Notes under the pieces: model-generated
What the model saw: the letters and a program-made list of their open reading frames with translations, nothing else
Database searches by the model: none
Told to the model about the DNA's origin: nothing
Part shown: positions 34,332 to 47,333 of the stretch, in pieces
How the letters are laid out: the number at the start of each line of letters is the position of its first letter
Position numbering within the stretch: position 1 is the stretch's first letter
Assembly: GCA_052038965.1 (NCBI GenBank)
Contig: JBQGDI010000009.1
Span: 1 to 47,450, forward strand
Direction of reading: 5' to 3'
Source of the DNA: Candidatus Limnocylindrales bacterium
GTDB taxonomy: Bacteria; Chloroflexota; Limnocylindria; Limnocylindrales; CSP1-4
DNA length: 47,450 nucleotides
Position numbers and translations under genes: made by a program

Positions 34332-35681
34332 ATGCCCGCCCCCCTGATCGTGCAGAAGTTCGGCGGCTCGTCGCTGGCGAGCGCCGAGCGAATCCGGCAC
34401 GTCGCAGATCGAATCGCGCGGGAGCGCCGGGCCGGCACGGAGCTGGTCGTCGTGGTCTCGGCGATGGGCGACACGACCGACGACCTGCTGGCCCTCGCCG
34501 GCGCGATCACGGCCGATCCGAGTCCCCGGGAGCTCGACGTCCTGCTGGCCACCGGCGAGCACCAGAGCGCGACCCTCGTCTCGATGGCCCTCCACGCCCT
34601 CGGCGTGCAGGCGATCTCGCTGACCGGCGCGCAGGCCGGGATCACGACCGACGGCCGCTACGGCAAGGCCCGGATCGCGAACGTCGAACCGCGACGGGTG
34701 CGCGCCGAGCTGGACCGCGGCAACGTGGTCATCGTGGCCGGCTTCCAGGGTCGGAGCGAGGCACCCACCGGGCCGACGAGCGCGGTCGCCGGGAACGGGA
34801 ATGGGAACGGGATCGACCCCAGCGGCGGCTCGGCCGCGGGCGGCGAGTGGGCCGAGACCACGACCCTCGGTCGGGGCGGCTCGGACACGACCGCGGTCGC
34901 CCTCGCGGCCGCGCTGCGGGCCGACCGCTGCCAGGTCTTCACCGACGTTCGGGGCATCTACACCGCCGATCCGCGCCTCGTGCCGGCGGCTCGCCAGCTG
35001 CCCGTGATCGGCTACGAGGAGATGCTCGAGCTGGCCCAGCAGGGGGCCCAGGTCATGCAGGTCCGGGCCGTCGAGCTCGGCTGGGTGAACGGGGTCGAGA
35101 TCGAGGTCCTGAGCTCGTTCGAGGATGCGCCGGGCACGGTCATCAGGGAGGATCCGCTCGTGGAGCAGCGCAACAAGGTCCGCGGCCTGGCCCACGACCG
35201 CAACGTCGCCAAGGTCACGCTGCTGGCCGTGCCCGACCGCCCGGGGGTCGCGCGCTCGGTCTTCGAGCCGCTCGCCGAGGCCGGTATCAACGTCGACATG
35301 ATCGTCCAGAACGTCGGCCACGACGGCGCCACGGACCTGTCCTTCACCGTCCCGCGGGTCGAGCTCCGCCGGGCGGAGGCCGTCCACCGCCCGAACCTCG
35401 AGGCCATGGGCGCCCGGGGCATCACCACCGACGGGAGCGGCGCCAAGGTTTCGATCGTCGGAGCCGGGCTGCACAACGCGCCGGGCTACGCGGCCCGGAT
35501 GTTCGGGACCCTGGCCGATGCCGGCGTGAACATCGAGATGATCTCGACCTCCGAGGTCCGGATCACCTGCGTCATCGCCGAATCTCGCCTCGAGGCGGCC
35601 CTGGGCGCCCTCCACGGGGCTTTCGAGCTCGAGCGACCCGAGCCCGTCGACGCGGCCGCCGCCGCGCGGCCGGCCGGCTGA
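34332..35681 (+). CDS. lysC: Aspartate kinase (alpha subunit)
   Basis: VQKFGGSS, VVVSAMGDTTD, VAGFQG, TTLGRGGSD, TDVRGIYTADPR, two ACT domains (PDRPG, ISTSE). TAGAAT at 34316-34321. Confidence 0.95.
   Translation: MPAPLIVQKFGGSSLASAERIRHVADRIARERRAGTELVVVVSAMGDTTDDLLALAGAITADPSPRELDVLLATGEHQSATLVSMALHALGVQAISLTGAQAGITTDGRYGKARIANVEPRRVRAELDRGNVVIVAGFQGRSEAPTGPTSAVAGNGNGNGIDPSGGSAAGGEWAETTTLGRGGSDTTAVALAAALRADRCQVFTDVRGIYTADPRLVPAARQLPVIGYEEMLELAQQGAQVMQVRAVELGWVNGVEIEVLSSFEDAPGTVIREDPLVEQRNKVRGLAHDRNVAKVTLLAVPDRPGVARSVFEPLAEAGINVDMIVQNVGHDGATDLSFTVPRVELRRAEAVHRPNLEAMGARGITTDGSGAKVSIVGAGLHNAPGYAARMFGTLADAGVNIEMISTSEVRITCVIAESRLEAALGALHGAFELERPEPVDAAAAARPAG
35160..35681 (+). CDS. Putative in-frame aspartokinase beta subunit (internal start)
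   Basis: AGGGAGGA at 35145-35152, 7 nt before in-frame GTG35160, at the start of the ACT region. Confidence 0.6.
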   Translation: MEQRNKVRGLAHDRNVAKVTLLAVPDRPGVARSVFEPLAEAGINVDMIVQNVGHDGATDLSFTVPRVELRRAEAVHRPNLEAMGARGITTDGSGAKVSIVGAGLHNAPGYAARMFGTLADAGVNIEMISTSEVRITCVIAESRLEAALGALHGAFELERPEPVDAAAAARPAG

Positions 35682-35702
35682 CGGGCCGGCACCCGCCGGG
35701 CG

Positions 35703-36518
35703 ATGACGATCGTCTCGCGCTTCGAGTGGCTATCGGTCGCGACCTCGACCAACGACGTCGTGTCCCGCTGGCTGGACGAGGGCGTGCCGGAGGTCTGCGT
35801 CGCCGTCGCCGACGAGCAGATCGCCGGCCGTGGTCGAGCCGGTCGGGCCTGGACGGCGCCCGCGGGGGCGGCCCTCCTGCTCTCGGCCGGGTTCCGGCCG
35901 ACGTGGCTCGCGCCGGACCTGGCGTGGCGCCTCTCGGCCGTCGTCTCGCTGGCGATGGCCGAAGCCTGCGAGGCCGTCGTCGGGCTCGTCCCCGGCACGG
36001 TCCGGCTGAAGTGGCCGAACGATCTCGTCGTCGACACCCTCGATCGCGGCGTCCTCAAGCTCGGTGGGGTCCTTGGCGAGACCGCCGGCCTGGGCACGCC
36101 CGACCCGCGCGTCGTCGTCGGGATCGGGATCAACGCCGGCTGGCCGCGCCACGAGTTCCCGCCCGAGCTGGCCACGTCGATGACCTCGCTCGCCGAGCTC
36201 GCTGACACGCCCGAGATCGATCGAGCGGGGCTCTGCGAGGCGTTCCGCGACCGCCTCGCACCGCTCGTCGTGGAGCTCCGCGAGGGCGGGTTCGCGGCGG
36301 CCGCGTGGCTCGTGCGCCAGCTGACGGACGGCCGGACCGTCCGCCTGGAGCGACCGGACGGCACCGCCGAGGTGGTCCACGCGGTCGGCGTCGATCCCGC
36401 GACGGGCGCGCTGCTCGTGCGTGGCGGCGACGCGGCCGGCGCGGTCCGAGCCGTCCTCGTAGGCGAGATTCGGCATCTCCGGGTCGCGGATCGGGCGACC
36501 GCGGCGGGTAGGCTGTAA
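35703..36518 (+). CDS. birA: Biotin-[acetyl-CoA-carboxylase] ligase (no N-terminal HTH)
   Basis: STN, EQIAGRGRAGRAW, LKWPND, KLGGVL, VGIGIN. Confidence 0.92.
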   Translation: MTIVSRFEWLSVATSTNDVVSRWLDEGVPEVCVAVADEQIAGRGRAGRAWTAPAGAALLLSAGFRPTWLAPDLAWRLSAVVSLAMAEACEAVVGLVPGTVRLKWPNDLVVDTLDRGVLKLGGVLGETAGLGTPDPRVVVGIGINAGWPRHEFPPELATSMTSLAELADTPEIDRAGLCEAFRDRLAPLVVELREGGFAAAAWLVRQLTDGRTVRLERPDGTAEVVHAVGVDPATGALLVRGGDAAGAVRAVLVGEIRHLRVADRATAAGRL

Positions 36519-36522
36519 CGCC

Positions 36523-37143
36523 ATGGCGCGGCGGGCATTGTGGAGATCGGGAGGAGCCGTGGGCGCTCCCCGCATCGCGCACCTCGACCGCGATCGGTTG
36601 CTGGTCGAGGCCGCGAAGCGCGACCCGGCGCAATTCGACGCCCTGTATCGACGGTATCTGCCCCGCGTGTACAGCTACGCATACTACGAGCTCGGGAATC
36701 ACCACGCCGCCGAGGACGCCACCGAGGCGACGTTCCTGGCCGCCCTCGCGAACCTGGCCCGGTTCGAGGAGCGCGCCCGTCCGGCTGACGGTGAGGGCGC
36801 CTCGACCTTCCGGGTCTGGCTCTTCCAGATCGCCCGAAACGAGGTCGCCGCCGAGCGTCGCCGCGCGCGCCGTCGGCCGCTCGAGCCGATGGACCAGGCC
36901 CTCGCGATCGCCGACCCGCTCGACGTCCAGGCCGACGCCGAACGCCTCGACGACGCGCGCGCTGCCTGGCAGGCCGTCGGTCGCCTGCCCGAGGAGCGCC
37001 GCCAGGCCGTCGTCATGCGCTTCGTGGACGAGCTGAGCACGGCCGAGATCGCCGGGGTGCTCGGCCGCTCCGAAGGCGCCGTCCGGGTCCTGATCCACCG
37101 CGCGCTCCGGGCCGTCGCCCGCGACCTCGCCCGGCCGGAATGA
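36523..37143 (+). CDS. ECF RNA polymerase sigma-70 factor
   Basis: DPAQFDALYRRY, AEDATEATF, FRVWLFQIARN, LSTAEIAGVLGRSEGAVRVLIHRAL. Start is either ATG36523 (8 nt after TAGGCT) or GTG36559 (SD GGAGGAG). Confidence 0.92.
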   Translation: MARRALWRSGGAVGAPRIAHLDRDRLLVEAAKRDPAQFDALYRRYLPRVYSYAYYELGNHHAAEDATEATFLAALANLARFEERARPADGEGASTFRVWLFQIARNEVAAERRRARRRPLEPMDQALAIADPLDVQADAERLDDARAAWQAVGRLPEERRQAVVMRFVDELSTAEIAGVLGRSEGAVRVLIHRALRAVARDLARPE

Positions 37144-37625
37144 CGGCGGCACGCCCCGACGCCGGCGAGATCGAGGCCCTCGTCACCGACCGCTACCTCG
37201 ATTCGCTGCTGGCCGGTCACGAGCCTGCCGAGGCCGAGCGCCAGACGCTCGCCGACAGCGTCGACGCGGCGATTCGCGCCATCTCGCGCCGGCTCTCGAC
37301 CGACCTGCCGCGCTTCCACCCGTCGTTTCGGTTCGAAGAGCGCCTGGCCGTCCGGCTCGCGGAGCTGGCGGCGTCGATGCGCCTCCCGCTGGCCGCCGGT
37401 GGCGAGAGCCAGCCGATCCCGATCCGACCCGTTGCGCCCGTCGCCGACCGCGACGCGGAGCCGACCGACTCGCCCGACGACCGCCGCCCGCTCCTCATCG
37501 GCGGGGCCGTGGCGGCATCGGCGATCAGCCTTGCCGGCGCGTGGCTCGCCTGGCGCCGGCGCACCGGCTCGCCGATGGCCCGTGCCGCGCGCGCCGCCCA
37601 CGGGCGGACCGGGAACGGGGCCTGA
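37140..37625 (+). CDS. Putative membrane-anchored anti-sigma factor
   Basis: ATGA-coupled to the ECF sigma; PSFRFEERL motif; a single C-terminal TM followed by WRRR. Confidence 0.6.
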   Translation: MTAARPDAGEIEALVTDRYLDSLLAGHEPAEAERQTLADSVDAAIRAISRRLSTDLPRFHPSFRFEERLAVRLAELAASMRLPLAAGGESQPIPIRPVAPVADRDAEPTDSPDDRRPLLIGGAVAASAISLAGAWLAWRRRTGSPMARAARAAHGRTGNGA

Positions 37626-37629
37626 CCCG

Positions 37630-38619
37630 ATGCCGATCAAGCTCCCGTCGTTCCGCCCGCGCCGCGACGTCTACCCGCCCGACCTCTGGACGAAGTGCCC
37701 GTCGTGCGGCGAGATGCTGTTCAACAAGACCCTCGACAAGTCCGACCGGGTCTGCCCGACCTGCGATCACCACTTCCGGCTGTCGGCCGCAGCGCGCCTC
37801 GCGCTGCTCCTGGACCCGCACTCCTTCGGTGAGCGCGACGCCGGGCTCCAGTCGGTTGACCCGCTCGGATTCGTCGACCAGAAGACCTACCCCGACCGCG
37901 TGGCGGCGGCCCAGCACGCGACCGGGCTGCGCGACGCCGCCGTCCGCGGCCTCGGGAGCATCGAGGGCCAACCGGTCTCGATCTGCGTGATGGACTTCGG
38001 CTTCATGGGCGGCTCGATGGGCGCGGTCGTCGGCGAGAAGGTCGCGCGGGCCACCGAGGACGCCCTCGCGGCCCGGATCCCGCTCGTCGTCGTGTCGGCC
38101 TCCGGCGGCGCCCGGATGCAGGAGGGGACGCTGGCCCTGATGCAGCTCGCCAAGACCTGCGCGGTCCTCGAGCGCCTGCGTGCGGCCCGGGTCCCGTACG
38201 TCAGCGTCCTGAGCGACCCGACGACCGGCGGCGTGTTCGCCTCGTATGCCGTCCTCGGCGACGTGAACCTCGCCGAGCCGAACGCGCTGATCGGCTTCGC
38301 CGGCGCTCGCGTCGCTGCCGGCACGATCGCCCAGGAGCTCCCGCCGGGCTTCCAGCGGAGCGAGTTCCTGTTCGAGCACGGGTTCATCGATCGTGTCGTC
38401 CATCGCCGCGACCTGCGCGCCGAGATCGCCGGCCTGCTCCGCTACCTCCGGCCGGCCGAGGCGATGCCCGAGACCCGGCCGGCCGGGTTCAGCCCGATCG
38501 GCCTCGTGTCGTCGCTCGTCGACCGGGTCGTCCCGGATCTCGGCGGCAACGACAACGGGCCGGCCGCCACCGCTCCCGGCGCGCGACCGTCGGCGGGGGA
38601 GGGCGGGAGCCGTGGTTGA
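37630..38619 (+). CDS. accD: Acetyl-CoA carboxylase carboxyltransferase beta subunit
   Basis: LWTKCPSC..VCPTCDHH zinc finger, DFGFMGGSMG, SGGARMQEG, PTTGGV.AS, GFQRSEFL. Confidence 0.95.
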   Translation: MPIKLPSFRPRRDVYPPDLWTKCPSCGEMLFNKTLDKSDRVCPTCDHHFRLSAAARLALLLDPHSFGERDAGLQSVDPLGFVDQKTYPDRVAAAQHATGLRDAAVRGLGSIEGQPVSICVMDFGFMGGSMGAVVGEKVARATEDALAARIPLVVVSASGGARMQEGTLALMQLAKTCAVLERLRAARVPYVSVLSDPTTGGVFASYAVLGDVNLAEPNALIGFAGARVAAGTIAQELPPGFQRSEFLFEHGFIDRVVHRRDLRAEIAGLLRYLRPAEAMPETRPAGFSPIGLVSSLVDRVVPDLGGNDNGPAATAPGARPSAGEGGSRG

Positions 38620-39616
38620 CCGGCTGCTGCACCGCGGCCGCGATGCTGGCCCCGACGCTGCCGCCGGCGATCCGAAGGCGGCCGTCTGGCGTCGTGTCCA
38701 GCTGGCGCGCCACCTCGGGCGTCCCCGGACGCTCGACCTGCTCGACGAGATGGCCGACGAGGTCATCGAGCTCCACGGTGACCGCGGCTTCGGCGACGAC
38801 CCGGCCCTCGTCGCCGGCTTCGCCCGGATCGACGGGCTTCGGATCGCCTTCGTCGGCCAGCAGAAGGGCGCCGATACCGACGAGAACATCCGCCGCAACT
38901 TCGGGATGCCGCATCCCGAGGGCTATCGCAAGGCGATGCGGGTCATGGAATTGGCCGAACGGTTCGGGCTGCCGATCGTGACGTTCGTCGACGTGCCCGG
39001 CGCGCACCCCGGCCCGGAATCCGAGGAGCGTGGGATCGCCGAGGCGATTGCCCGGAGCATCGGCCTGATGTCCCGACTCCGGACCCCGATCGTGGCCGTC
39101 ATCACCGGCGAGGGCGGGTCCGGCGGGGCCCTCGCGATCGCCGTCGGCGACGTCGTCCTGGCTCTCGAGAACGCCGTCTACTCCGTGATCAGCCCCGAGG
39201 GCTGTGCCTCGATCCTGTGGCGGACCTCCGACGAGGCGGCGACGGCGGCCCTGGCGATGAGGATGTCGGCCGCCGACCAGCAGGCCCTCGGCGTCATCGA
39301 CGAGGTCATTTCCGAGCCCGGCGACGGCGCCCACGCCGATCGACGCGAGACCGCCCGTCGTCTCAAGGCGGCGATCGTCGCGCGGCTCGAGCGGCTGGCG
39401 ACGATCCCGCTGGACGAGCTCGTGGAGGCTCGCTATCGGCGCTACCGTGCCATCGGCCCGTACACTGAGGTCGCCGCGCCGCCCGTGGCGCAGCCGCCGA
39501 GCCGGGGGCTCACCGACCGCCTGCGCGACCTGCTCGATCCCGGTCGATGGTCGGCCGGCGTCCCGCTCCCCGGCGCGTCGAGACGCGACGAGCCGCCCGC
39601 CCACGAGGAGGTCTGA
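38612..39616 (+). CDS. accA: Acetyl-CoA carboxylase carboxyltransferase alpha subunit
   Basis: VQLARH..RP, ELHGDR, NFGMPHPEGYRKA, AIARS, GEGGSGGALA, YSVISPEGCASIL. Confidence 0.95.
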   Translation: MVDRLLHRGRDAGPDAAAGDPKAAVWRRVQLARHLGRPRTLDLLDEMADEVIELHGDRGFGDDPALVAGFARIDGLRIAFVGQQKGADTDENIRRNFGMPHPEGYRKAMRVMELAERFGLPIVTFVDVPGAHPGPESEERGIAEAIARSIGLMSRLRTPIVAVITGEGGSGGALAIAVGDVVLALENAVYSVISPEGCASILWRTSDEAATAALAMRMSAADQQALGVIDEVISEPGDGAHADRRETARRLKAAIVARLERLATIPLDELVEARYRRYRAIGPYTEVAAPPVAQPPSRGLTDRLRDLLDPGRWSAGVPLPGASRRDEPPAHEEV

Positions 39617-39619
39617 TCG

Positions 39620-40285
39620 GTGCCCGAGACGGACCCCGTGCGCCAGGACGACCGTGCGGCCGCGATCGACCGCGAGGCCGACCACGCCGAGATCGCCCGG
39701 CTGGCCGACGAGCTCCTTCCGGCACTGATCGCGAAGCTCGCAACGACCCGGCTCGGCGAGCTCGAGGTCCGCGAGGGGGGCTGGAAGATCCGATTGCGCC
39801 GGCCGTTCGGAGCGGGGCCCGGCGAGGGCCGCCGAGCGGGGGATCGGCCGTCGCGCTCGCAGCCCGGTCACGAGGGCCACGGCCACCCGCGCGCGACGCC
39901 CGAGCCGCACCGGGTCGCACGGCCGGGCGGCGACGGTGCGGGACGCGGGGCGGCTCACGAATCCGGCCACGGCCACGACCACGCCGTCTCGGGCAACGGC
40001 AGCAGCCCCGGCAACCGCGATCGATCCGTGGCAACGTCGCCGGCGGTCGGGACGTTCCGGCCCAGTGGTCGCGTCGCCGTCGGGACCCGCGTCCGGGCCG
40101 GCGACACCGTCGGGATCGTCGACGTCCTGGGCGTCCCCCAGGAGGTGACCGCGCCCGTCGACGGCATCGTCGGCGCGACGCTCGTCGAGGCCGGGATGGC
40201 CGTCGAGTACGGTCAGGAGCTCGTCCGGATCGAGCTCTCGGCTTCGGCGGCGCCGGGCGGCGGCGCGCCGGCGGAGGCCCGCTGA
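39620..40285 (+). CDS. BCCP-like protein lacking the biotinylation lysine (BADC-like)
   Basis: BCCP N-term (LGELEVREGGWKIRLRR) and biotinyl/lipoyl domain (SPAVGTF, V.VG.RV..GDTVGIV, APVDG.V, G..VEYGQEL), but DVLG replaces EAMK. Confidence 0.85.
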   Translation: MPETDPVRQDDRAAAIDREADHAEIARLADELLPALIAKLATTRLGELEVREGGWKIRLRRPFGAGPGEGRRAGDRPSRSQPGHEGHGHPRATPEPHRVARPGGDGAGRGAAHESGHGHDHAVSGNGSSPGNRDRSVATSPAVGTFRPSGRVAVGTRVRAGDTVGIVDVLGVPQEVTAPVDGIVGATLVEAGMAVEYGQELVRIELSASAAPGGGAPAEAR

Positions 40286-41652
40286 TGTTCCGCCGGATCC
40301 TGATCGCGAACCGGGGCGAGATCGCGCTGCGGATCCTGCGGGCCTGTCGGACGCTCGGCATCGAGGCCGTCGTGGCGTACAGCGAGGCCGATCGGGACTC
40401 CCTTCCGGCCCAGCTCGCCGACGAGGCGATCTGCATCGGGCCGGCTGACGCCCGGCGGTCGTACCTGTCCGCGCCGGCGGTCATCTCGGCCGCGCTCGTC
40501 ACCGGCTGCGAGGCGATCCACCCGGGCTACGGCTTCCTGTCCGAGGACGAGACATTCGCCGAGGTCGTGCGAGCCCACGACCTGGCGTTCATCGGACCGC
40601 CGCCCGAGGTCCTCGACCGCTTCGCCTCGAAGGAGGGCAGCCGCCGGCTCCTCGGCGGCCACGGGTTGCCGACGATCCCCGGCTCGGACGGAATGCTGCG
40701 CGACGACCAGCATGCGCTCGACGAGGCCGCGCGGATCGGCTACCCGGTATTGATCAAACCTTCCGCGGGCGGCGGTGGCAAGGGCATGCGGATGGTCCGG
40801 ACGTCGCGCGAGCTCGAATCGGCGATCCGGGTCTGCAGGTCGGAGGCGAAGGCCGCCTTCGGCGACGACTCGCTGTACCTCGAGAAATGGCTCGACGACA
40901 ACCGCCACGTCGAGGTCCAGGTCGCGGTCGACCGCTTCGCGCACGGCAGCCACCTCGGCGAGCGGGATTGCTCGGTCCAGCGACGGCACCAGAAGATCCT
41001 CGAGGAGGCCCCGACGCCGGCCCTCGGACCGGCCGCGCGGGAGCAGCTCGCGGAGCGGGCGATCGAGGCCGTCGTGGCGGCCGGCTACGAGAACGTCGGG
41101 ACGCTCGAGTTCCTCGTCGATGGCGAGGGCCACGCCTACTTCATCGAGATCAACTGCCGGATCCAGGTGGAGCACCCGGTGACCGAGATGCTGACCGGCA
41201 TCGACCTCGTCGTGCTGCAGCTGCGAATCGCGGCCGGCGAGCCGCTCGGCTTGCGCCAGGCTGACGTCGCGCTCGGCGGCCACGCCATCGAGTTCCGGAT
41301 CAACGCCGAGGACCCGGCCCACGACTTCCGGCCCGGGGCCGGGCTCATCGAGCGCTATCACGCCCCCGGTGGGCCGGGCATCCGGATGGACACGCACCTC
41401 TACCCGGGTTACGAGGTTCCGCCGTACTACGACTCGCTGCTTGGCAAGCTCATCGTCTGGGCGGCGGACCGGGAGACCGCGATCGCCCGCAGCCGGGCGG
41501 CCCTCGAGGAGCTCGTCGTCGACGGCGTGACGACGAACGTCGAGATGCACCGCGCGATCCTCGCGAACGAGGCGTTCCTCGAGGGAAGGATGACGACGAA
41601 CATGCTCGACCGAATCGGAGGCGCAGCGTTCCTCGCCGCGGCCGCGCGATGA
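40285..41652 (+). CDS. accC: Biotin carboxylase
   Basis: MFRRILIANRGEIA, HPGYGFLSE, GGGGKGMR, ERDCSVQRRHQK, RIQVEHPVTE, YYDSLLGKLI. Confidence 0.96.
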   Translation: MFRRILIANRGEIALRILRACRTLGIEAVVAYSEADRDSLPAQLADEAICIGPADARRSYLSAPAVISAALVTGCEAIHPGYGFLSEDETFAEVVRAHDLAFIGPPPEVLDRFASKEGSRRLLGGHGLPTIPGSDGMLRDDQHALDEAARIGYPVLIKPSAGGGGKGMRMVRTSRELESAIRVCRSEAKAAFGDDSLYLEKWLDDNRHVEVQVAVDRFAHGSHLGERDCSVQRRHQKILEEAPTPALGPAAREQLAERAIEAVVAAGYENVGTLEFLVDGEGHAYFIEINCRIQVEHPVTEMLTGIDLVVLQLRIAAGEPLGLRQADVALGGHAIEFRINAEDPAHDFRPGAGLIERYHAPGGPGIRMDTHLYPGYEVPPYYDSLLGKLIVWAADRETAIARSRAALEELVVDGVTTNVEMHRAILANEAFLEGRMTTNMLDRIGGAAFLAAAAR

Positions 41653-42146
41653 CCGAGGCCGCGACGTCGACGGCCGCGTCCGCGCTCGCCGCGCCAGGCA
41701 CCGTGCTCACCACGAAGCAGATCGAGGCGCTCATCCCGCACCGCTGGCCGATGCTCATGGTCGACCGGATCGTCGAGTACGACCCCGCGGCGAAGCGGAT
41801 CGTCGGGATCAAGGGCACGACGGCAACGGAGTGGTGGGCCCAGGGCCACTTCCCGGGACTGCCGATCATGCCTGGCGTGCTGCAGGTCGAGGCGCTGGCC
41901 CAGACGATGGCCGTCTACGTCGCCCAGCAGCCCGGCTTCGGCGACCGGATCGGGCTGTTCGCGGGCATCGACGAGACGCGCTTCAAGCGCGTCGTGGTGC
42001 CGGGCGACGTCCTCCGCCTCGAGGTCACGATGGACAAGCTCGGCTCGCGCTTCGGACGCGGCCGGGGCGTCGCCTCGGTCGATGGCGAGGTCGCCTGCGA
42101 GGCGACCCTCAGCTTCATCATCCCGCCGGAAGGGGTGCTCCGCTGA
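41649..42146 (+). CDS. fabZ: 3-hydroxyacyl-ACP dehydratase
   Basis: LIPHRWPMLMVDRI, GHFPGLPIMPGVLQVEALAQ, RFKRVVVPGD. Confidence 0.93.
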   Translation: MTEAATSTAASALAAPGTVLTTKQIEALIPHRWPMLMVDRIVEYDPAAKRIVGIKGTTATEWWAQGHFPGLPIMPGVLQVEALAQTMAVYVAQQPGFGDRIGLFAGIDETRFKRVVVPGDVLRLEVTMDKLGSRFGRGRGVASVDGEVACEATLSFIIPPEGVLR

Positions 42147-42964
42147 GCCGCCTCGCCGTCTTCTCCGACGTCCACGGCAACCTCGCCGCCCTCGAGGCCG
42201 TCCGCAAGGCGATCAAGCGCGAGAAGCCCGACGCGATTCTCGTCGCCGGCGACCTCGTGATGAACGGGCCCGCGCCGGGAGCCTGCGTCGACGCGCTCCG
42301 GGACATGGAGTCGGGCGGCGCGATCATCGTCCAGGGCAACACCGACATCGCTGTCGCCGACGCCGACTACTCGGCGGCGTTCCCGTGGTATGCCGACGGG
42401 GGCGTGCCCGATCCAGTCCGGGCGGTCGCCGAGTGGACCCACGGGGCCCTCGGCGACGAGCGAATCGACTGGCTCCGGCGGCTGCCGTCGGAGCGGCGGC
42501 TCCGGGTCGAGGACACGCTCGTCCTCGTGACCCACGCGTCGCCGGGGTCCCAGACGCAGGGCCTCGAGATGGGCCTCGACCCGTCGGTCACGCTCCAGCT
42601 GGTGTCGCGGACCGACGCCCGCCTGATCTGCTGCGGCCACACCCACCTGCCGGAGGTCCGCGAATTCGGCTGGAAGGTCATCGTCAACGACGGCAGCGCC
42701 GGCTACGTCTTCGACGGCACCCCGACGGCCTCGTGGGCGCTGGTCACGATCGAGCCGGGGACGGTGACCGAGCTGGAGCCCGAGTCCGAGGCCGCCGAGG
42801 ACGACGAGTGGCAGTCCGGTGGCGATGGCCGGGCGTCCATCACGGCCGAGATCCGCCGCGCCGAGTTCGACACCCTGGCCGTCTCGAATGCCATCTCCGC
42901 GCGGGGCCTGCCCGGCGACGTCTACCGCGCCGCGACGGTCCGAACCGGGAAGCTCGTCCGGTGA
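42143..42964 (+). CDS. Calcineurin-like metallophosphoesterase (YfcE-like), probable CTG start
   Basis: SDVHGN, AGDLV, QGNTD, THASP, CGHTH, VNDGS. The domain begins exactly at CTG42143, overlapping the fabZ stop. Confidence 0.82.
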   Translation: MSRLAVFSDVHGNLAALEAVRKAIKREKPDAILVAGDLVMNGPAPGACVDALRDMESGGAIIVQGNTDIAVADADYSAAFPWYADGGVPDPVRAVAEWTHGALGDERIDWLRRLPSERRLRVEDTLVLVTHASPGSQTQGLEMGLDPSVTLQLVSRTDARLICCGHTHLPEVREFGWKVIVNDGSAGYVFDGTPTASWALVTIEPGTVTELEPESEAAEDDEWQSGGDGRASITAEIRRAEFDTLAVSNAISARGLPGDVYRAATVRTGKLVR

Positions 42965-44223
42965 CGGAGGCGAGCCGGCGCCGCGTCGTCGTCACCGGGA
43001 TGGGCGCGGTGACCGCGCTCGGCAACGACGTGGCGTCGACCTGGGACGGGCTCGTCGCAGGCCGGTCGGGCGTCCGGACGATCGAGGCCTTCGACCCGGC
43101 CCGCGTCGACTCGAAGATCGCGGCCGAGGTCCGTGGCTTCGACCCGTCCGCCGTCATCGACCGCAAGGAGATGCGGCGGATGGACCGCTACATCCAGTTC
43201 GGGCTCGTCGTCGCCCGGCAGGCGCTCGACCAGGCAGGACTCCCGGGCCGGATGAACGGCTCGCTCGCGGCACGGACCGGGGTCATCCTCGGCTCGGGCC
43301 TCGGGGGCGTGGCGACGCTGTTCGACAACGTCCTCCTGATGGCCGAGCGCGGGCCCGATCGGATCAGCCCGTTCTTCATCCCGATGGGCATCGCCAACGT
43401 CGGTTCGGGCCAGGTCGCGATCGCGTTCGGGATGCTCGGCCCGAACTTCGCGACGGTCTCGGCCTGTGCGACCGGCGCCCACGCCATCGGCGAGGCCTGG
43501 GAGACGATCCGCCGCGACGATGCCGACGTCATGCTCGCCGGGGGCACCGAGGCCGCGATCCACGAGGCGGTCCTTGGCGGCTTCAGCTCGATGAAGGCGC
43601 TCTCGACTCGCAATGACGACCCGGCGGCGGCGTCGCGGCCGTTCGACCAGGGACGCGACGGGTTCGTCATCGGCGAGGGCGCGGGGATGCTCGTGCTCGA
43701 GGAGCTGTCGCACGCCGAAGCGCGCGGCGCGGAGCCGCTGGCCGAGCTCGTCGGCTACGGCGCGACCGCCGATGCGTCCCACATCACGCTCCCGGCCCCC
43801 GGCGGCGCCGGGGCGGTTCGCGCCGGACGGCGGGCCCTCGAGAAGGGCGGCGTCGACCCGGCGGAGATCCAGCACGTCAACGCCCATGCGACGTCCACCC
43901 CGGAGGGCGACGCGGCGGAGCTCCAGGCGATCCAGACCCTGCTCGGCGAGGGTGCGCCGGGCGTCTCGGTCACCGCCAACAAGTCGATGGTCGGTCACAC
44001 CCTCGGCGCGGCCGGTGCGATCGAGTCGATCGCGACGATCATGGCCATCCGGACCGGCACGATCCCGCCGACGATCAACCTCGAGGACCCGGACCCCCAC
44101 GCCGACGGCCTCGACCTCACGCCGAACGCGGCCACCTATCGCGATGTCGGCGCCGCGGTCAACAACTCATTCGGCTTCGGGGGCCAGAACGCCACCCTCG
44201 TCTTCCGTCGGTGGGGCGGATGA
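42961..44223 (+). CDS. fabF: Beta-ketoacyl-ACP synthase II
   Basis: RVVVTGMG, SACATG (catalytic Cys), SRPFD.GRDGFV.GEG, NAHATST, KSMVGHTLGAAG, NSFGFGG. Confidence 0.95.
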   Translation: MTEASRRRVVVTGMGAVTALGNDVASTWDGLVAGRSGVRTIEAFDPARVDSKIAAEVRGFDPSAVIDRKEMRRMDRYIQFGLVVARQALDQAGLPGRMNGSLAARTGVILGSGLGGVATLFDNVLLMAERGPDRISPFFIPMGIANVGSGQVAIAFGMLGPNFATVSACATGAHAIGEAWETIRRDDADVMLAGGTEAAIHEAVLGGFSSMKALSTRNDDPAAASRPFDQGRDGFVIGEGAGMLVLEELSHAEARGAEPLAELVGYGATADASHITLPAPGGAGAVRAGRRALEKGGVDPAEIQHVNAHATSTPEGDAAELQAIQTLLGEGAPGVSVTANKSMVGHTLGAAGAIESIATIMAIRTGTIPPTINLEDPDPHADGLDLTPNAATYRDVGAAVNNSFGFGGQNATLVFRRWGG

Positions 44224-44798
44224 CGGGCCACGGCTCGGATGCCATCCCGGTGCCCGACGCGTCGTCACCCGAGACGCCGCCCGACGAGCCGCCGATGGTC
44301 GCCGATGGCCCGGTGGTCGCGCCCGCCGATCCCGCCGACGCGTCCCTCCTGGTCCTGATCGACCGCCTCGCCGGGCTCCTCGACCGGACCGAGCTGACGG
44401 AGCTGGAGGTCCAGGTCGGCGCGACCGGGCTCGTCCTGCGGAAGCCGTCGGCCATTGCACCGCCTGCGTCCCCCTCCGGCCCCGACGGTGCCTCGGCGAC
44501 CGCGGCCCCGGCGGCCCATCCCGGGCCCGGGGGCCCCGTTGGCGCCGCTCCGCCCATGCGACCGTCCGTCAAGGCGCCGCTCACCGGCATCTGGTATGCC
44601 TCGCCGGCACCGGGCTCGGCCCCATTCGTGAGCCTTGGCGGCGAGGTCGCCGTGGGCCAGGTCATCGGGCTCATCGAGGCGATGAAGCTGTTCAACGAGA
44701 TCAAGAGCGACCTCGCCGGCCGTGTCGTGCGGATCCAGGCCGAGGACGGCAAGCTCGTTCGTGCCAAGCAGCCCCTGATCGAGGTGGAGCCGCTGTGA
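44220..44798 (+). CDS. accB: Biotin carboxyl carrier protein
   Basis: APLTGIWY..P.PG..PFV, GQVIGLIEAMKLFNEIKSD with the biotin Lys codon at 44685-44687. ATGA overlap with fabF. Confidence 0.92.
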   Translation: MTGHGSDAIPVPDASSPETPPDEPPMVADGPVVAPADPADASLLVLIDRLAGLLDRTELTELEVQVGATGLVLRKPSAIAPPASPSGPDGASATAAPAAHPGPGGPVGAAPPMRPSVKAPLTGIWYASPAPGSAPFVSLGGEVAVGQVIGLIEAMKLFNEIKSDLAGRVVRIQAEDGKLVRAKQPLIEVEPL

Positions 44799-46009
44799 CC
44801 CAGTCGTCGCGGAACGGGACGATGACCGCGCCGCGGGCGCACGTCACGGGCTGGGGTCGCTACGTGCCCAGCCAGATTCTCTCGAACGCCGATCTCGAGC
44901 GGATGGTCGACACGTCCGACGAGTGGATCGTCACGCGCACCGGGATCCGCGAGCGACGGGTCGCGGCCGCCGACGAGACGACGGCCTCGATGGCCGCGGT
45001 GGCCGCGATGCGAGCCATCCGAACCGCAGGGATCGAGCCCGACGAGATCGACCTCATCCTCCTGGCGACCCTCACGCCGGACTACTGGATGCCCTCGACC
45101 GCCGCCCTCGTGAAGGAGGCGATCGGCAACACCCGGGCCGCGGCCATGGACGTCGCGGCGGCCTGCTCCGGCTTCGTGTACGCCTTCGCCTCGGCCCAGG
45201 CGTGGATCGCGGCGGGCCTCGCGAAGCACGTCCTGGTCATCGGGGCGGAGCTCCTGACGCGGTTCCTCGACTACGCCGACCGGGGCACCTGCATCCTGTT
45301 CGGCGATGGCGCCGGGGCCGTCGTGCTGTCGGCCTCGCACGGGCCGGGCGGCGCGCTCGGCGTGGAGCTCACGACGGAGCCGCAGGGCGCGTACATGATC
45401 TGGCTCCCGGCCGGCGGCGCAAAGAGCCCGCCCTCGGCCGAGACGATCGCCCGCGGCGAGCACTACATCCGGATGGAGGGCCGCGAGACCTACCGCTTCG
45501 CCACCAAGACGATGGCCACCACGGCCCTCGAATCGGTTCGGCGCTCCGGCCTCGCGCCGTCGGACGTCGACCTCTTCATCCCACACCAGGCGAACGTCCG
45601 GATCATCGAGGCCGTGGCGAAGGGCCTCGGTCTGCCGATGGACCGGATGTACACGAACGTCGATCGCTACGGGAACACGTCGGCCGCATCCGTCCCGATC
45701 GCCCTCGCGGAGGCCGTGAACGAGGGCCGCGTTCGAATCGGCGACAACGTCTGCCTCGTCGCCTTCGGGGCCGGCTTCACCAGCGGCGCGGTGACGATCG
45801 AGTGGACGGCCGATCCCGCGCGCGGCCGGGCCGGCGACGCCGCCGTGAACGCCGAGGACATCCGGGTCCGGCTGCCGGTCGACTGGGATTCGGTGGATCC
45901 GATCCCGCAGGCGCTGGCCGAGGTGATGGCCCGGCCGGGGCCGGTCGACGTACCGCTCGACGACGTGGTGCCGGGCGATCCAGAGCCGGTGTCCCACCCG
46001 GTCCGCTAG
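44795..46009 (+). CDS. fabH: Beta-ketoacyl-ACP synthase III with C-terminal extension
   Basis: VDTSDEWI..RTGIRERR, AACSGF, ILFGDGAGA, PHQAN, YGNTSAAS, FGAG. Confidence 0.94.
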   Translation: MTQSSRNGTMTAPRAHVTGWGRYVPSQILSNADLERMVDTSDEWIVTRTGIRERRVAAADETTASMAAVAAMRAIRTAGIEPDEIDLILLATLTPDYWMPSTAALVKEAIGNTRAAAMDVAAACSGFVYAFASAQAWIAAGLAKHVLVIGAELLTRFLDYADRGTCILFGDGAGAVVLSASHGPGGALGVELTTEPQGAYMIWLPAGGAKSPPSAETIARGEHYIRMEGRETYRFATKTMATTALESVRRSGLAPSDVDLFIPHQANVRIIEAVAKGLGLPMDRMYTNVDRYGNTSAASVPIALAEAVNEGRVRIGDNVCLVAFGAGFTSGAVTIEWTADPARGRAGDAAVNAEDIRVRLPVDWDSVDPIPQALAEVMARPGPVDVPLDDVVPGDPEPVSHPVR

Positions 46010-46024
46010 TCGCGGTTTGACGCG

Positions 46025-46888
46025 ATGCGCGTCGCGGTCAACGGCACGTCGTTGTGGTTCGACGTCGTGGGCTCGCGGCTCGTACCCGAGGGCCCACGGA
46101 TGCGACCTCGGCCTACGGCCGTCCTCGTCCACGGCGGCCCCGGGGGCTACGACCACTCGTACCTGCGGCCGTCGTTCGATTGGCTCGCCGATCACGCGCA
46201 GGTCGTGTACCTCGACCTCCGCGAGCATGGTCGGTCGGCGCGAATCGACCCGGCGGGCTGGTCAATCGACGCCTGCGCCGATGACCTCGCGAGGTTCTGT
46301 GATGCGCTCGGCATCGATGCCCCGATCGTCATCGGGCATTCGATGGGCGGGATGGTCGCGCTGCGGTACGGCCAGCGCCATCCGGGCCACGCGGGCGGGA
46401 TCGTGGCGCTCGGCGCAATGGCTAGATACGACGTCGCGCGCATCACCGACGGCTTCCGGCGCGTGGCCGGCGACGAGATCGCGGAGCTGGCGCGCCGGGC
46501 GTACGCCGACGAAGGCGTGGACGACGACGCATGGGAACGGGTGCGGGTCGCCTTCGGACCGAACGTGCTGTCACATGACGAGCGCCAGCGGATGCTCCGA
46601 AACGCGGAGCTGGGCGCCGCGGCAGCGCCCGAGATGATGGCGTTCGACATCGTGGACGAGCTCGACCGGATCGACGTGCCGACGTTCGTCGTGGTGGGCT
46701 CCCTCGATCCCGTGACGCCCGTCTCGGCCGCGGAGGAGATCCATCGCGGGCTCCGGACGGGCGTCGGCCGACTCGCGGTCATCGACGGAGCCGGCCACTG
46801 GCCGTGGCTGGATGCGCCCGGCGAGCTTCGCGACCTGATCGCGGGGTTCATGGCGCAGGTCGACGACCGCTCGGCCGCGAGCGCGTGA
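46025..46888 (+). CDS. Alpha/beta hydrolase (proline-iminopeptidase-like)
   Basis: VHGGPG, GHSMGG nucleophile elbow, GSLDPVTP, GAGHWP. Confidence 0.88.
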   Translation: MRVAVNGTSLWFDVVGSRLVPEGPRMRPRPTAVLVHGGPGGYDHSYLRPSFDWLADHAQVVYLDLREHGRSARIDPAGWSIDACADDLARFCDALGIDAPIVIGHSMGGMVALRYGQRHPGHAGGIVALGAMARYDVARITDGFRRVAGDEIAELARRAYADEGVDDDAWERVRVAFGPNVLSHDERQRMLRNAELGAAAAPEMMAFDIVDELDRIDVPTFVVVGSLDPVTPVSAAEEIHRGLRTGVGRLAVIDGAGHWPWLDAPGELRDLIAGFMAQVDDRSAASA

Positions 46889-46904
46889 TAGCGTCCGAGC
46901 GATC

Positions 46905-47333
46905 GTGAGCGACGCGTATCGCATCGAGCTTCGAACGGTCGACGGTGGACCGACGGCCGTCGCCGCATCCGGCCCGTTCAGCGTGATCACTGACCGGCCG
47001 GCCGCCGCGGGCGGCCGGGGCCTCGGGTTCAACGGCGGGCAGCTGCTCTACGCCGCCATCGCGGGCTGCTACTCGAACGACCTGTACCGCGAGGCCGCGA
47101 CCCTGGGGATCACGCTGCGCCGCGTCGCCATCACCGTCGACGGGGACTTCCCGAAGCGCGGCGAGCCGTCGACGCCGATCAGGGTCGATCTCGAGGTGGA
47201 GGGCGATTCGTCGGAGGGCCGGCTTCGCGAGCTCGTCGAGCTCGTCGACCGCATCGCCGAGATTCCGAACTCGATCCGGGGCACGACGCCGGTGACCCTG
47301 GCGCAAGTCCTGGGGAGGGGAGGGCTCGGATGA
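46905..47333 (+). CDS. OsmC-like protein
   Basis: [24 protein letters not shown]-terminal OsmC/YhfA motif; only one Cys. Confidence 0.78.

Follow-up and report, generated by a model that had tools for sequence, protein, structure and literature searches.

We examined a 47,450-nucleotide stretch of DNA from a Candidatus Limnocylindrales bacterium of the phylum Chloroflexota (positions 1 to 47,450 of contig JBQGDI010000009.1, assembly GCA_052038965.1), referred to below as the window, and in particular a gene at 39620 to 40285 that lies between accA and accC, two genes for acetyl-CoA carboxylase (ACCase). This gene encodes a relative of the biotin carboxyl carrier protein (BCCP, or AccB) in which the lysine that carries biotin is replaced, and a second gene, for a canonical BCCP, lies downstream between fabF and fabH (Table 1). 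A Shine-Dalgarno sequence, GAGGAGG, ends 7 nt before the GTG start codon of the lysine-less gene, which begins 3 nt after the accA stop codon (39614 to 39616). Its own TGA stop codon (40283 to 40285) overlaps the accC ATG (40285 to 40287) in the sequence TGATG. The initial annotation of this DNA had described an intact BCCP homologue coupled to accC, together with a canonical EAMK protein downstream, and both descriptions were borne out by the family matches, alignments and codons given below. Judged from sequence, a lysine-less BCCP of this kind appears to have been kept across the Chloroflexota, and it resembles the BADC proteins, which have so far been reported from plant chloroplasts alone.

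The lysine-less protein is made up of three parts, namely an N-terminal alpha/beta/beta segment, a low-complexity linker and a C-terminal biotinyl-like domain. Residues 139-204 match PF00364 (Biotin_lipoyl) with 31.5 bits (Pfam cut-off 22.1), and the best NCBIfam match is the BCCP family TIGR00531, at 44.7 bits and under the curated cut-off of 115.2. This cut-off alone is not discriminating, because the true AccB of the window, at 90.2 bits, also falls short of it. A profile search of the PDB returned E. coli BCCP as the closest solved relative (4hr7_B, E 1.5e-16), with query residues 31-203 aligned to residues 28-176, from the N-terminal segment through to the C-terminus; the 1bdo and 3bdo chains align too. 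HHalign related the lysine-less family to the co-resident AccB family (probability 93.5%, identity 27%, 139 columns). Assignment as a lipoyl carrier (E2 or GcvH) was rejected, since Gly stands at the hairpin tip and the top family and PDB matches are BCCPs.

Conservation extends to both the N-terminal segment and the C-terminal domain. An alignment of 36 homologues (59-71% identical to the query) has 61 invariant columns, many of them in the N-terminal segment, which is the best conserved stretch of the protein. Even in a wide alignment P34, L36, E47, E49, R58 and R60 of this segment are invariant, as are V143, G144, G155, L170, G171 and V195-G198 of the C-terminal domain. The linker carries a His-rich motif that is invariant among the 36 close homologues, and its consensus, S-R-x-Q-P-G-H-x-G-H-G-H (QPGHxGHxH), was found in 69 of the 92 orthologous loci introduced below. 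The motif has no counterpart in AccB, where HHalign places a gap, and divergent lysine-less proteins are without it; it may, speculatively, be a metal or pH site. A search of the organism's own genome for a second genuine copy found none, the full motif occurring only in the lysine-less gene. One GHEGHGH elsewhere in that genome lies in a frame that appears to be non-coding.

At the tip of the hairpin, D-V-L-G of the lysine-less protein stands where E. coli AccB and the true AccB of the window both have E-A-M-K in the alignment, in agreement with the codons at 40121 to 40132. The protein has only two lysines, residues 39 and 56, and both lie in the N-terminal segment; the whole C-terminal domain is therefore free of lysine, as the initial annotation had stated, and would be expected to accept neither biotin nor lipoate. 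The distance from the beta-1 Gly to the Glu of the hairpin is 23 residues in 18/18 rows from the window's class, compared with 29 in all 15 lysine-bearing rows. The thumb loop of the lysine-less proteins of the class is thus six residues shorter than that of lysine-bearing BCCPs, and this shared deletion supports a single origin within the class.

The loss of the hairpin lysine is common to the close relatives. In a word-seeded search of 5.8 billion proteins, 8000 candidates were scored and 2723 of them matched at E <= 0.001; all 120 listed homologues (57-71% identical, the query itself apart) are without the lysine and read x-[V/M]-[L/I]-G at the hairpin. The best 150 of 4839 matches from a search of representatives were read by eye; several are fragments or frameshifted, and the lysine is missing from every one of them that has an intact C-terminal domain. 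Some orthologues carry one or two lysines within the last 80 residues, and a search of the C-terminal domain for an alternative conserved lysine found none, the frequency of Lys staying at or below 11% in every column. When one genome per species was scanned, 371 loci encoding a relative came up; the 80 best of them, with 12 more from relatives (the window's own included), make up a set of 92 loci. The hairpin reads [D/N/E]-[M/V/L]-[L/I]-G in 91 of them, and the remaining reading frame ends before the hairpin. Of 55 orthologous reading-frame pieces of the downstream accB, 51 show EAMK and the other four end before the hairpin. Orthologues that retain MK, which the initial annotation had named as the mark of strain-specific decay, were found neither among the 120 listed homologues nor among the 91 loci.

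The same holds for the class as a whole, which is named Candidatus Limnocylindria in the records of the relatives. Of the 301 class genomes put to a profile search, 300 gave a match (5 families, 57 genera), or 289 of 290 if 11 unpublished genomes are set aside; the comparison genomes are mostly metagenome-assembled, and the window's own genome is 68% complete. Members of all five families show x-L-G at the hairpin. In families that we denote by codes, the hairpin reads VDVLG or VEVLG in f2 (6/6 loci), QSLG in f3 (4/4) and f5 (1/1), and [D/E]-[V/M]-L-G in f4 (3/3, then a further 20/20). Wherever flanks were read in f2 to f5, accA precedes the gene and accC follows it. A true EAMK accB comes after fabF in those f3 and f4 loci that extend far enough, and f2 has a second Biotin_lipoyl match at a distance of about 4.6 kb from the lysine-less gene. 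Each f2 genome (G025-G028, G035) also has a third Biotin_lipoyl match, of 63-67 bits, in a short frame of 90-120 residues (for example G025:C5:35538-35750).

Lysine-less BCCPs extend well beyond this class. With the same profile, a match was obtained in 233 of the 401 genomes (one unpublished) that were sampled across the phylum. Outside the class, 51 best matches could be read (16 as full loci, 35 from among 40 short stretches), of which 41, in 10 families, are without the lysine and the other 10 keep E-A/T-M-K. The lysine-less hairpins outside the class read VLG, ALG, TLG, ALN, SLN, VLN, TLN, TLR, VLR, ALR, ALA, ALQ, VVN and VMM. In the Ktedonobacteria, which are one of these 10 families and include the cultured Thermogemmatispora and Dictyobacter, 120/120 homologues (P0276-P0395) read [E/Q]-[S/A]-L-N, and in family f22 about 70 of 76 read DVLG, as in the window. 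The protein clusters listed as nearest to homologue P0044 (ranks 1, 2, 3 and 19 of 30 matches) are all commonest in Chloroflexota. The feature, which the initial annotation had described for the operon of the window, is found in at least 10 further families of the phylum. The efp-linked lysine-less BCCPs of the Ktedonobacteria (L156, P0276-P0395) have a thumb of full length and conserved lysines outside the hairpin.

Outside the class the gene has another home. All 16 full loci read pepP-efp-[BCCP]-xseA and none lies beside accC, which is elsewhere in the genomes checked. Four of these 16 efp-linked loci carry a normal EAMK AccB instead, and because these are bona fide carriers the efp slot appears to be the ancestral position of accB. 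In five genomes of those four families (three shared with the loci), the efp-linked AccB scores 136-168 bits, above the TIGR00531 cut-off, and no fabF-linked accB was found among their BCCP matches. All five genomes examined that have a lysine-less efp-linked copy have a true E-A/T-M-K accB after fabF, with accC just upstream of that fabF in two of them. In five of five genomes of the window's class xseA directly follows efp and the slot is empty. The fabF-accB arrangement is thus the norm of the phylum. The initial annotation was right in seeing a BADC-like protein by sequence but not in calling the true accB of the window displaced. It was probably the lysine-less copy that moved, leaving the efp slot for the site between accA and accC in the window's class.

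A phylogenetic tree is in keeping with this history, though it does not decide the matter. All 32 lysine-less rows form one clade (support 98/93), and the fabF-linked AccBs form a separate clade (97/98). The efp-linked EAMK rows fall outside both, two near the root and two unresolved beside the fabF-linked clade. A single origin of the lysine-less BCCPs is the better-supported account, though not a proven one. Most likely the ancestral efp-linked accB gave rise to the lysine-less family once another accB, linked to fabF, had become the carrier.

We also considered whether the gene might be a decaying accB duplicate or a strain-specific pseudogene, as its score under the curated BCCP cut-off and its missing catalytic lysine could suggest. 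However, the frame is intact, the change is kept across five families and 57 genera, all readable orthologues are without MK, and many columns are invariant. The median pairwise dN/dS (the ratio of nonsynonymous to synonymous substitution rates, by the method of Nei and Gojobori) is 0.38 for the lysine-less gene, far below 1 and close to the 0.34 of accB (accA, 0.25; accC, 0.20), as compared between genes over 2316 non-independent pairs (623 for accB) at dS of 0.4-1.1, which is near saturation. These values, a check proposed in the initial annotation, point to purifying selection on the lysine-less gene similar to that on accB. The conservation data refute decay, and we give it almost no credence.

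The lysine-less gene belongs to an operon of nine genes whose junctions overlap or abut in the window, most of them overlapping by 1-8 nt. The order accD-accA-X-accC-fabZ-phosphoesterase-fabF-accB-fabH, in which X is the lysine-less gene, is found in every locus of the 92-locus set that is long enough. At the junction with accC, the stop and start codons share one nucleotide in 61 of 84 loci, and in the others no more than 21 nt separate the two genes. For the true accB of the window, ATG 44220 is the probable start codon, giving an ATGA overlap with the fabF stop codon, and not GTG 44211 as in the list of open reading frames. The record titles of the relatives are nearly all Chloroflexi or Chloroflexota, or Candidatus Limnocylindria or Limnocylindrales.

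Table 1. Features of the ACCase region of the window
Feature	Coordinates	Strand	Basis and remarks
birA, group I biotin protein ligase	35703..36518	+	TIGR00121, 103 bits (cut-off 83.1)
accD, carboxyltransferase beta with Zn ribbon	37630..38619	+	TIGR00515, 358 bits; PF17848 Zn_ribbon_ACC
accA, carboxyltransferase alpha	38612..39616	+	PF03255, 379 bits; NF004344, 376 bits; GTG at 38612 inferred
Lysine-less BCCP paralogue	39620..40285	+	221 aa, GTG start; list of open reading frames, PF00364
N-terminal BCCP segment, residues 32-62	39713..39805	+	Translation; aligns to E. coli BCCP from residue 28 onwards
His-rich linker motif S-R-S-Q-P-G-H-E-G-H-G-H (SRSQPGHEGHGH), residues 78-89	39851..39886	+	Alignment
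Biotinyl-domain-like C-terminal domain, no Lys, shortened thumb	40034..40234	+	PF00364
Hairpin tip D-V-L-G in place of E-A-M-K	40121..40132	+	Translation, alignment
accC, biotin carboxylase	40285..41652	+	NF006367, 643 bits
fabZ	41649..42146	+	PF07977, 100.8 bits; ATGA overlap with accC
Metallophosphoesterase	42143..42964	+	PF12850, 81.3 bits; start codon uncertain
fabF	42961..44223	+	Named from translation; orthologues at same position in relatives (BLAST); GTGA overlap with preceding gene
True accB (EAMK at 44676-44687)	44220..44798	+	PF00364, 46.9 bits; TIGR00531, 90.2 bits
fabH	44795..46009	+	Named from translation; orthologues at same position; start inferred

Several further features of these loci were noted. 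The metallophosphoesterase gene between fabZ and fabF is kept in nearly all loci of the class. Directly upstream of accD (35703-37625 in the window) lie birA, a gene for an extracytoplasmic function (ECF) sigma factor and a possible anti-sigma reading frame; among the 51 loci with enough upstream flank, birA is present in 51, the sigma factor in 49 and the anti-sigma-like frame in 33. Small f2 genomes of 1.0-1.4 Mb (L093, L096, L097, L098) have accD and accA in a single frame of about 670 residues, which points to a possible fused carboxyltransferase. Contigs titled as Deferrimicrobiaceae, Patescibacteria, Eisenbacteria, Methylomirabilota, Polarisedimenticolia, Verrucomicrobiia and Sulfomarinibacteraceae (L014, L020, L062, L063, L067, L068, L082) have this operon too, at 50-69% identity to the query, and are probably mis-binned. 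A scan of 35500-47000 for promoters and terminators returned none of either, and such a scan has low power in G+C-rich DNA.

The reading that we favor is that the lysine-less protein is a non-catalytic subunit of ACCase, functionally similar to plant BADC, and we would put its probability at about 0.6. In the ACCase tubes of E. coli, the N-terminal 30 residues of BCCP were modelled as forming an oligomeric hub to which the carriers are tethered, and a non-catalytic site on biotin carboxylase (BC) and the AccD zinc domain is where the carrier domain docks (PMC11160672). The lysine-less protein appears to keep both the N-terminal segment by which BCCPs oligomerise and are tethered within the carboxylase and the signature of the biotinyl fold. 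Its homology, lysine loss, conservation, purifying selection, gene context and distribution are observed; its binding partners and the direction of its effect are inferred. The protein would be made in step with AccC, and its N-terminal segment would join the N-terminal hub of AccB. The dead carrier domain could then fill the BCCP docking site on AccC, and possibly that on the AccD zinc domain, and so stabilise or gate the BC-BCCP subcomplex, as has been proposed for plant BADC; the His-rich motif might, speculatively, add an input of pH or metal. Its universal presence in the class and its coupling to accC make us lean towards a standing structural role, as "glue" or cap, and away from conditional inhibition. 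In its most extended form, this proposal would give the Chloroflexota a five-component ACCase with an ancient lysine-less BCCP that is obligatory throughout the phylum, co-assembles with AccB, caps AccC, is convergent with BADC as far as the change of Met-Lys to Leu-Gly and, in the Limnocylindria, carries a His-based switch. We hold that version only tentatively, at somewhat less than even odds.

Other roles can be envisaged for a protein with these properties. Its dead domain might compete with holo-AccB for AccC, or titrate PII or BirA, and thereby lower ACCase activity under some conditions. Such a decoy was the original model for plant BADC (PMC11926652), PII is cited as binding BCCP in both bacteria and plants (PMC12706156; reference list of PMC11160672), and the lysine-less domain has kept the BCCP fold signature and has birA as a conserved neighbor. 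However, near-universal presence in the class (300 of 301 genomes) and coupling to accC suggest fixed co-production, not conditional expression, and the short thumb and altered hairpin would remove features that BirA and PII are expected to recognise; we consider a decoy unlikely. Alternatively, the protein could work outside the enzyme, its N-terminal segment acting on transcription or translation of the acc operon, since this segment is the best conserved part and the N-terminus of E. coli BCCP has been discussed as an element of transcriptional repression (PMC11160672). A pure N-terminal regulator would not need the C-terminal domain, however, which is conserved as well; moreover, scans of Pfam and NCBIfam gave no match to a DNA- or RNA-binding domain, and the gene is remote from the acc genes in other Chloroflexota. 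A role in expression is thus improbable. That same distance is what speaks for a function unrelated to ACCase, tied for example to the pepP-efp-xseA neighborhood, in which case the position in the acc operon would be incidental: efp and xseA flank the gene in all 16 full loci outside the class, where no acc gene is near and accC lies elsewhere in the genome. However, the efp link goes back to an ancestral position of accB, given the four bona fide EAMK AccBs among the 16, and the move into the slot between accA and accC, with its conserved one-nucleotide overlap, argues for a role in ACCase. We rate a function apart from the enzyme no higher than one in gene expression.

Several points weigh against a BADC-like ACCase subunit of single origin. 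BLASTP between the two BCCPs of the window gives only a weak match (best E 0.003). The tree has a single outgroup, support for the lysine-less clade drops to 80/87 when the hairpin columns are removed, and an approximately unbiased (AU) test does not reject a grouping of the class's lysine-less genes with the fabF-linked AccBs (p 0.19); these genes may possibly have arisen separately, by local duplication. The dN/dS values support a comparison between genes and nothing beyond it. In most other Chloroflexota the lysine-less gene adjoins no acc gene, so that the operon link is confined to the window's class, and the efp link outside the class may or may not be merely historical. The shortened thumb, and the His-rich linker of most close relatives, have no parallel in BADC that can be checked. 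In addition, the plant literature is itself divided on whether BADC is an activator or "glue" or an inhibitor (PMC11926652).

If the favored reading is true, a conserved bacterial counterpart would mean that a solution of the BADC type has evolved at least twice. The bacterial version lies next to accC in the operon of one class and is present in cultured Ktedonobacteria, and it would offer a simple soluble system, free of plastid import and of isoform redundancy, in which to study how a dead carrier acts on heteromeric ACCase. There is also a consequence for annotation. Lysine-less proteins are labelled "acetyl-CoA carboxylase biotin carboxyl carrier protein" or "biotin/lipoyl-containing protein" though the lysine is missing, and metabolic reconstructions of Chloroflexota that take the gene adjacent to accA or efp as accB would choose the wrong gene. 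The initial annotation knew of no description of such a protein in bacteria, and a search of the full-text literature, mostly outside subscription journals, likewise found none for a bacterial lysine-less BCCP paralogue. The available text of a paper on Chloroflexus ACCase, which has a BC-BCCP fusion, makes no mention of lysine-less BCCPs (PMC11077971).

Among known proteins, canonical AccB (E. coli AccB; PDB 4HR7 and 1BDO) is one that has the same three parts and whose gene adjoins accC in E. coli, as the lysine-less gene does in the window's class. The lysine-less protein differs in having Leu-Gly for Met-Lys, a shorter thumb and no lysine for biotin at the canonical site, and its TIGR00531 score of 44.7 bits compares with 90.2 for the true AccB of the window and 136-168 for the efp-linked EAMK AccBs. 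By sequence, then, it would be placed in the BCCP superfamily while failing the defining feature of AccB, the biotinyl lysine. Two other kinds of small protein associated with carboxylases can be compared: the epsilon subunits of actinobacterial acyl-CoA carboxylases are not known to be homologous to BCCP, bind the carboxyltransferase beta subunit and have no known sequence relation to the lysine-less protein, and RfaA (YqhY) of Bacillus subtilis belongs to a different fold family from BCCP. The epsilon subunits are nonetheless similar in being small, non-catalytic subunits of a biotin carboxylase complex, described as an assembling and activating "glue" (cited in PMC11926652). RfaA, encoded after accB-accC, is likewise a small protein whose gene lies beside that of its target, AccC, but it is reported to act as a degradation adaptor (10.1101/2024.02.19.580884) and not by mimicking BCCP.

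Judged by sequence, the closest functional parallel is with plant BADC1-3, the biotin attachment domain-containing proteins, which also go by the name of BCCP-like proteins. The BADC proteins are described as BCCP paralogues of 25-30% identity that are not biotinylated, bind both BC and BCCP, and are "unique to the plant htACCase" (PMC11926652). The lysine-less protein shows a comparable identity to its co-resident BCCP (27% by HHalign), is likewise without the biotinyl lysine and occurs alongside a true BCCP in a heteromeric ACCase system, but it is bacterial and encoded in an operon. Its nesting within the AccBs of the Chloroflexota suggests an independent origin, and it probably arose inside this phylum and is thus convergent with BADC; descent of plant BADC from such a bacterial gene seems very unlikely. 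The likeness extends to the hairpin itself. Brassica orthologues of the Arabidopsis BCCP-like protein 2 have CYIEQLGGQFPIE where BCCPs have CIIEAMKLMNEIE, giving a BADC-type hairpin of EQLG (PMC9578262), which agrees with the Gly given for BADC in the initial annotation. The plant proteins and the lysine-less BCCPs therefore share the same change of MK to LG, with EQLG in Brassica and DVLG, DMLG or QSLG in the bacteria described here.

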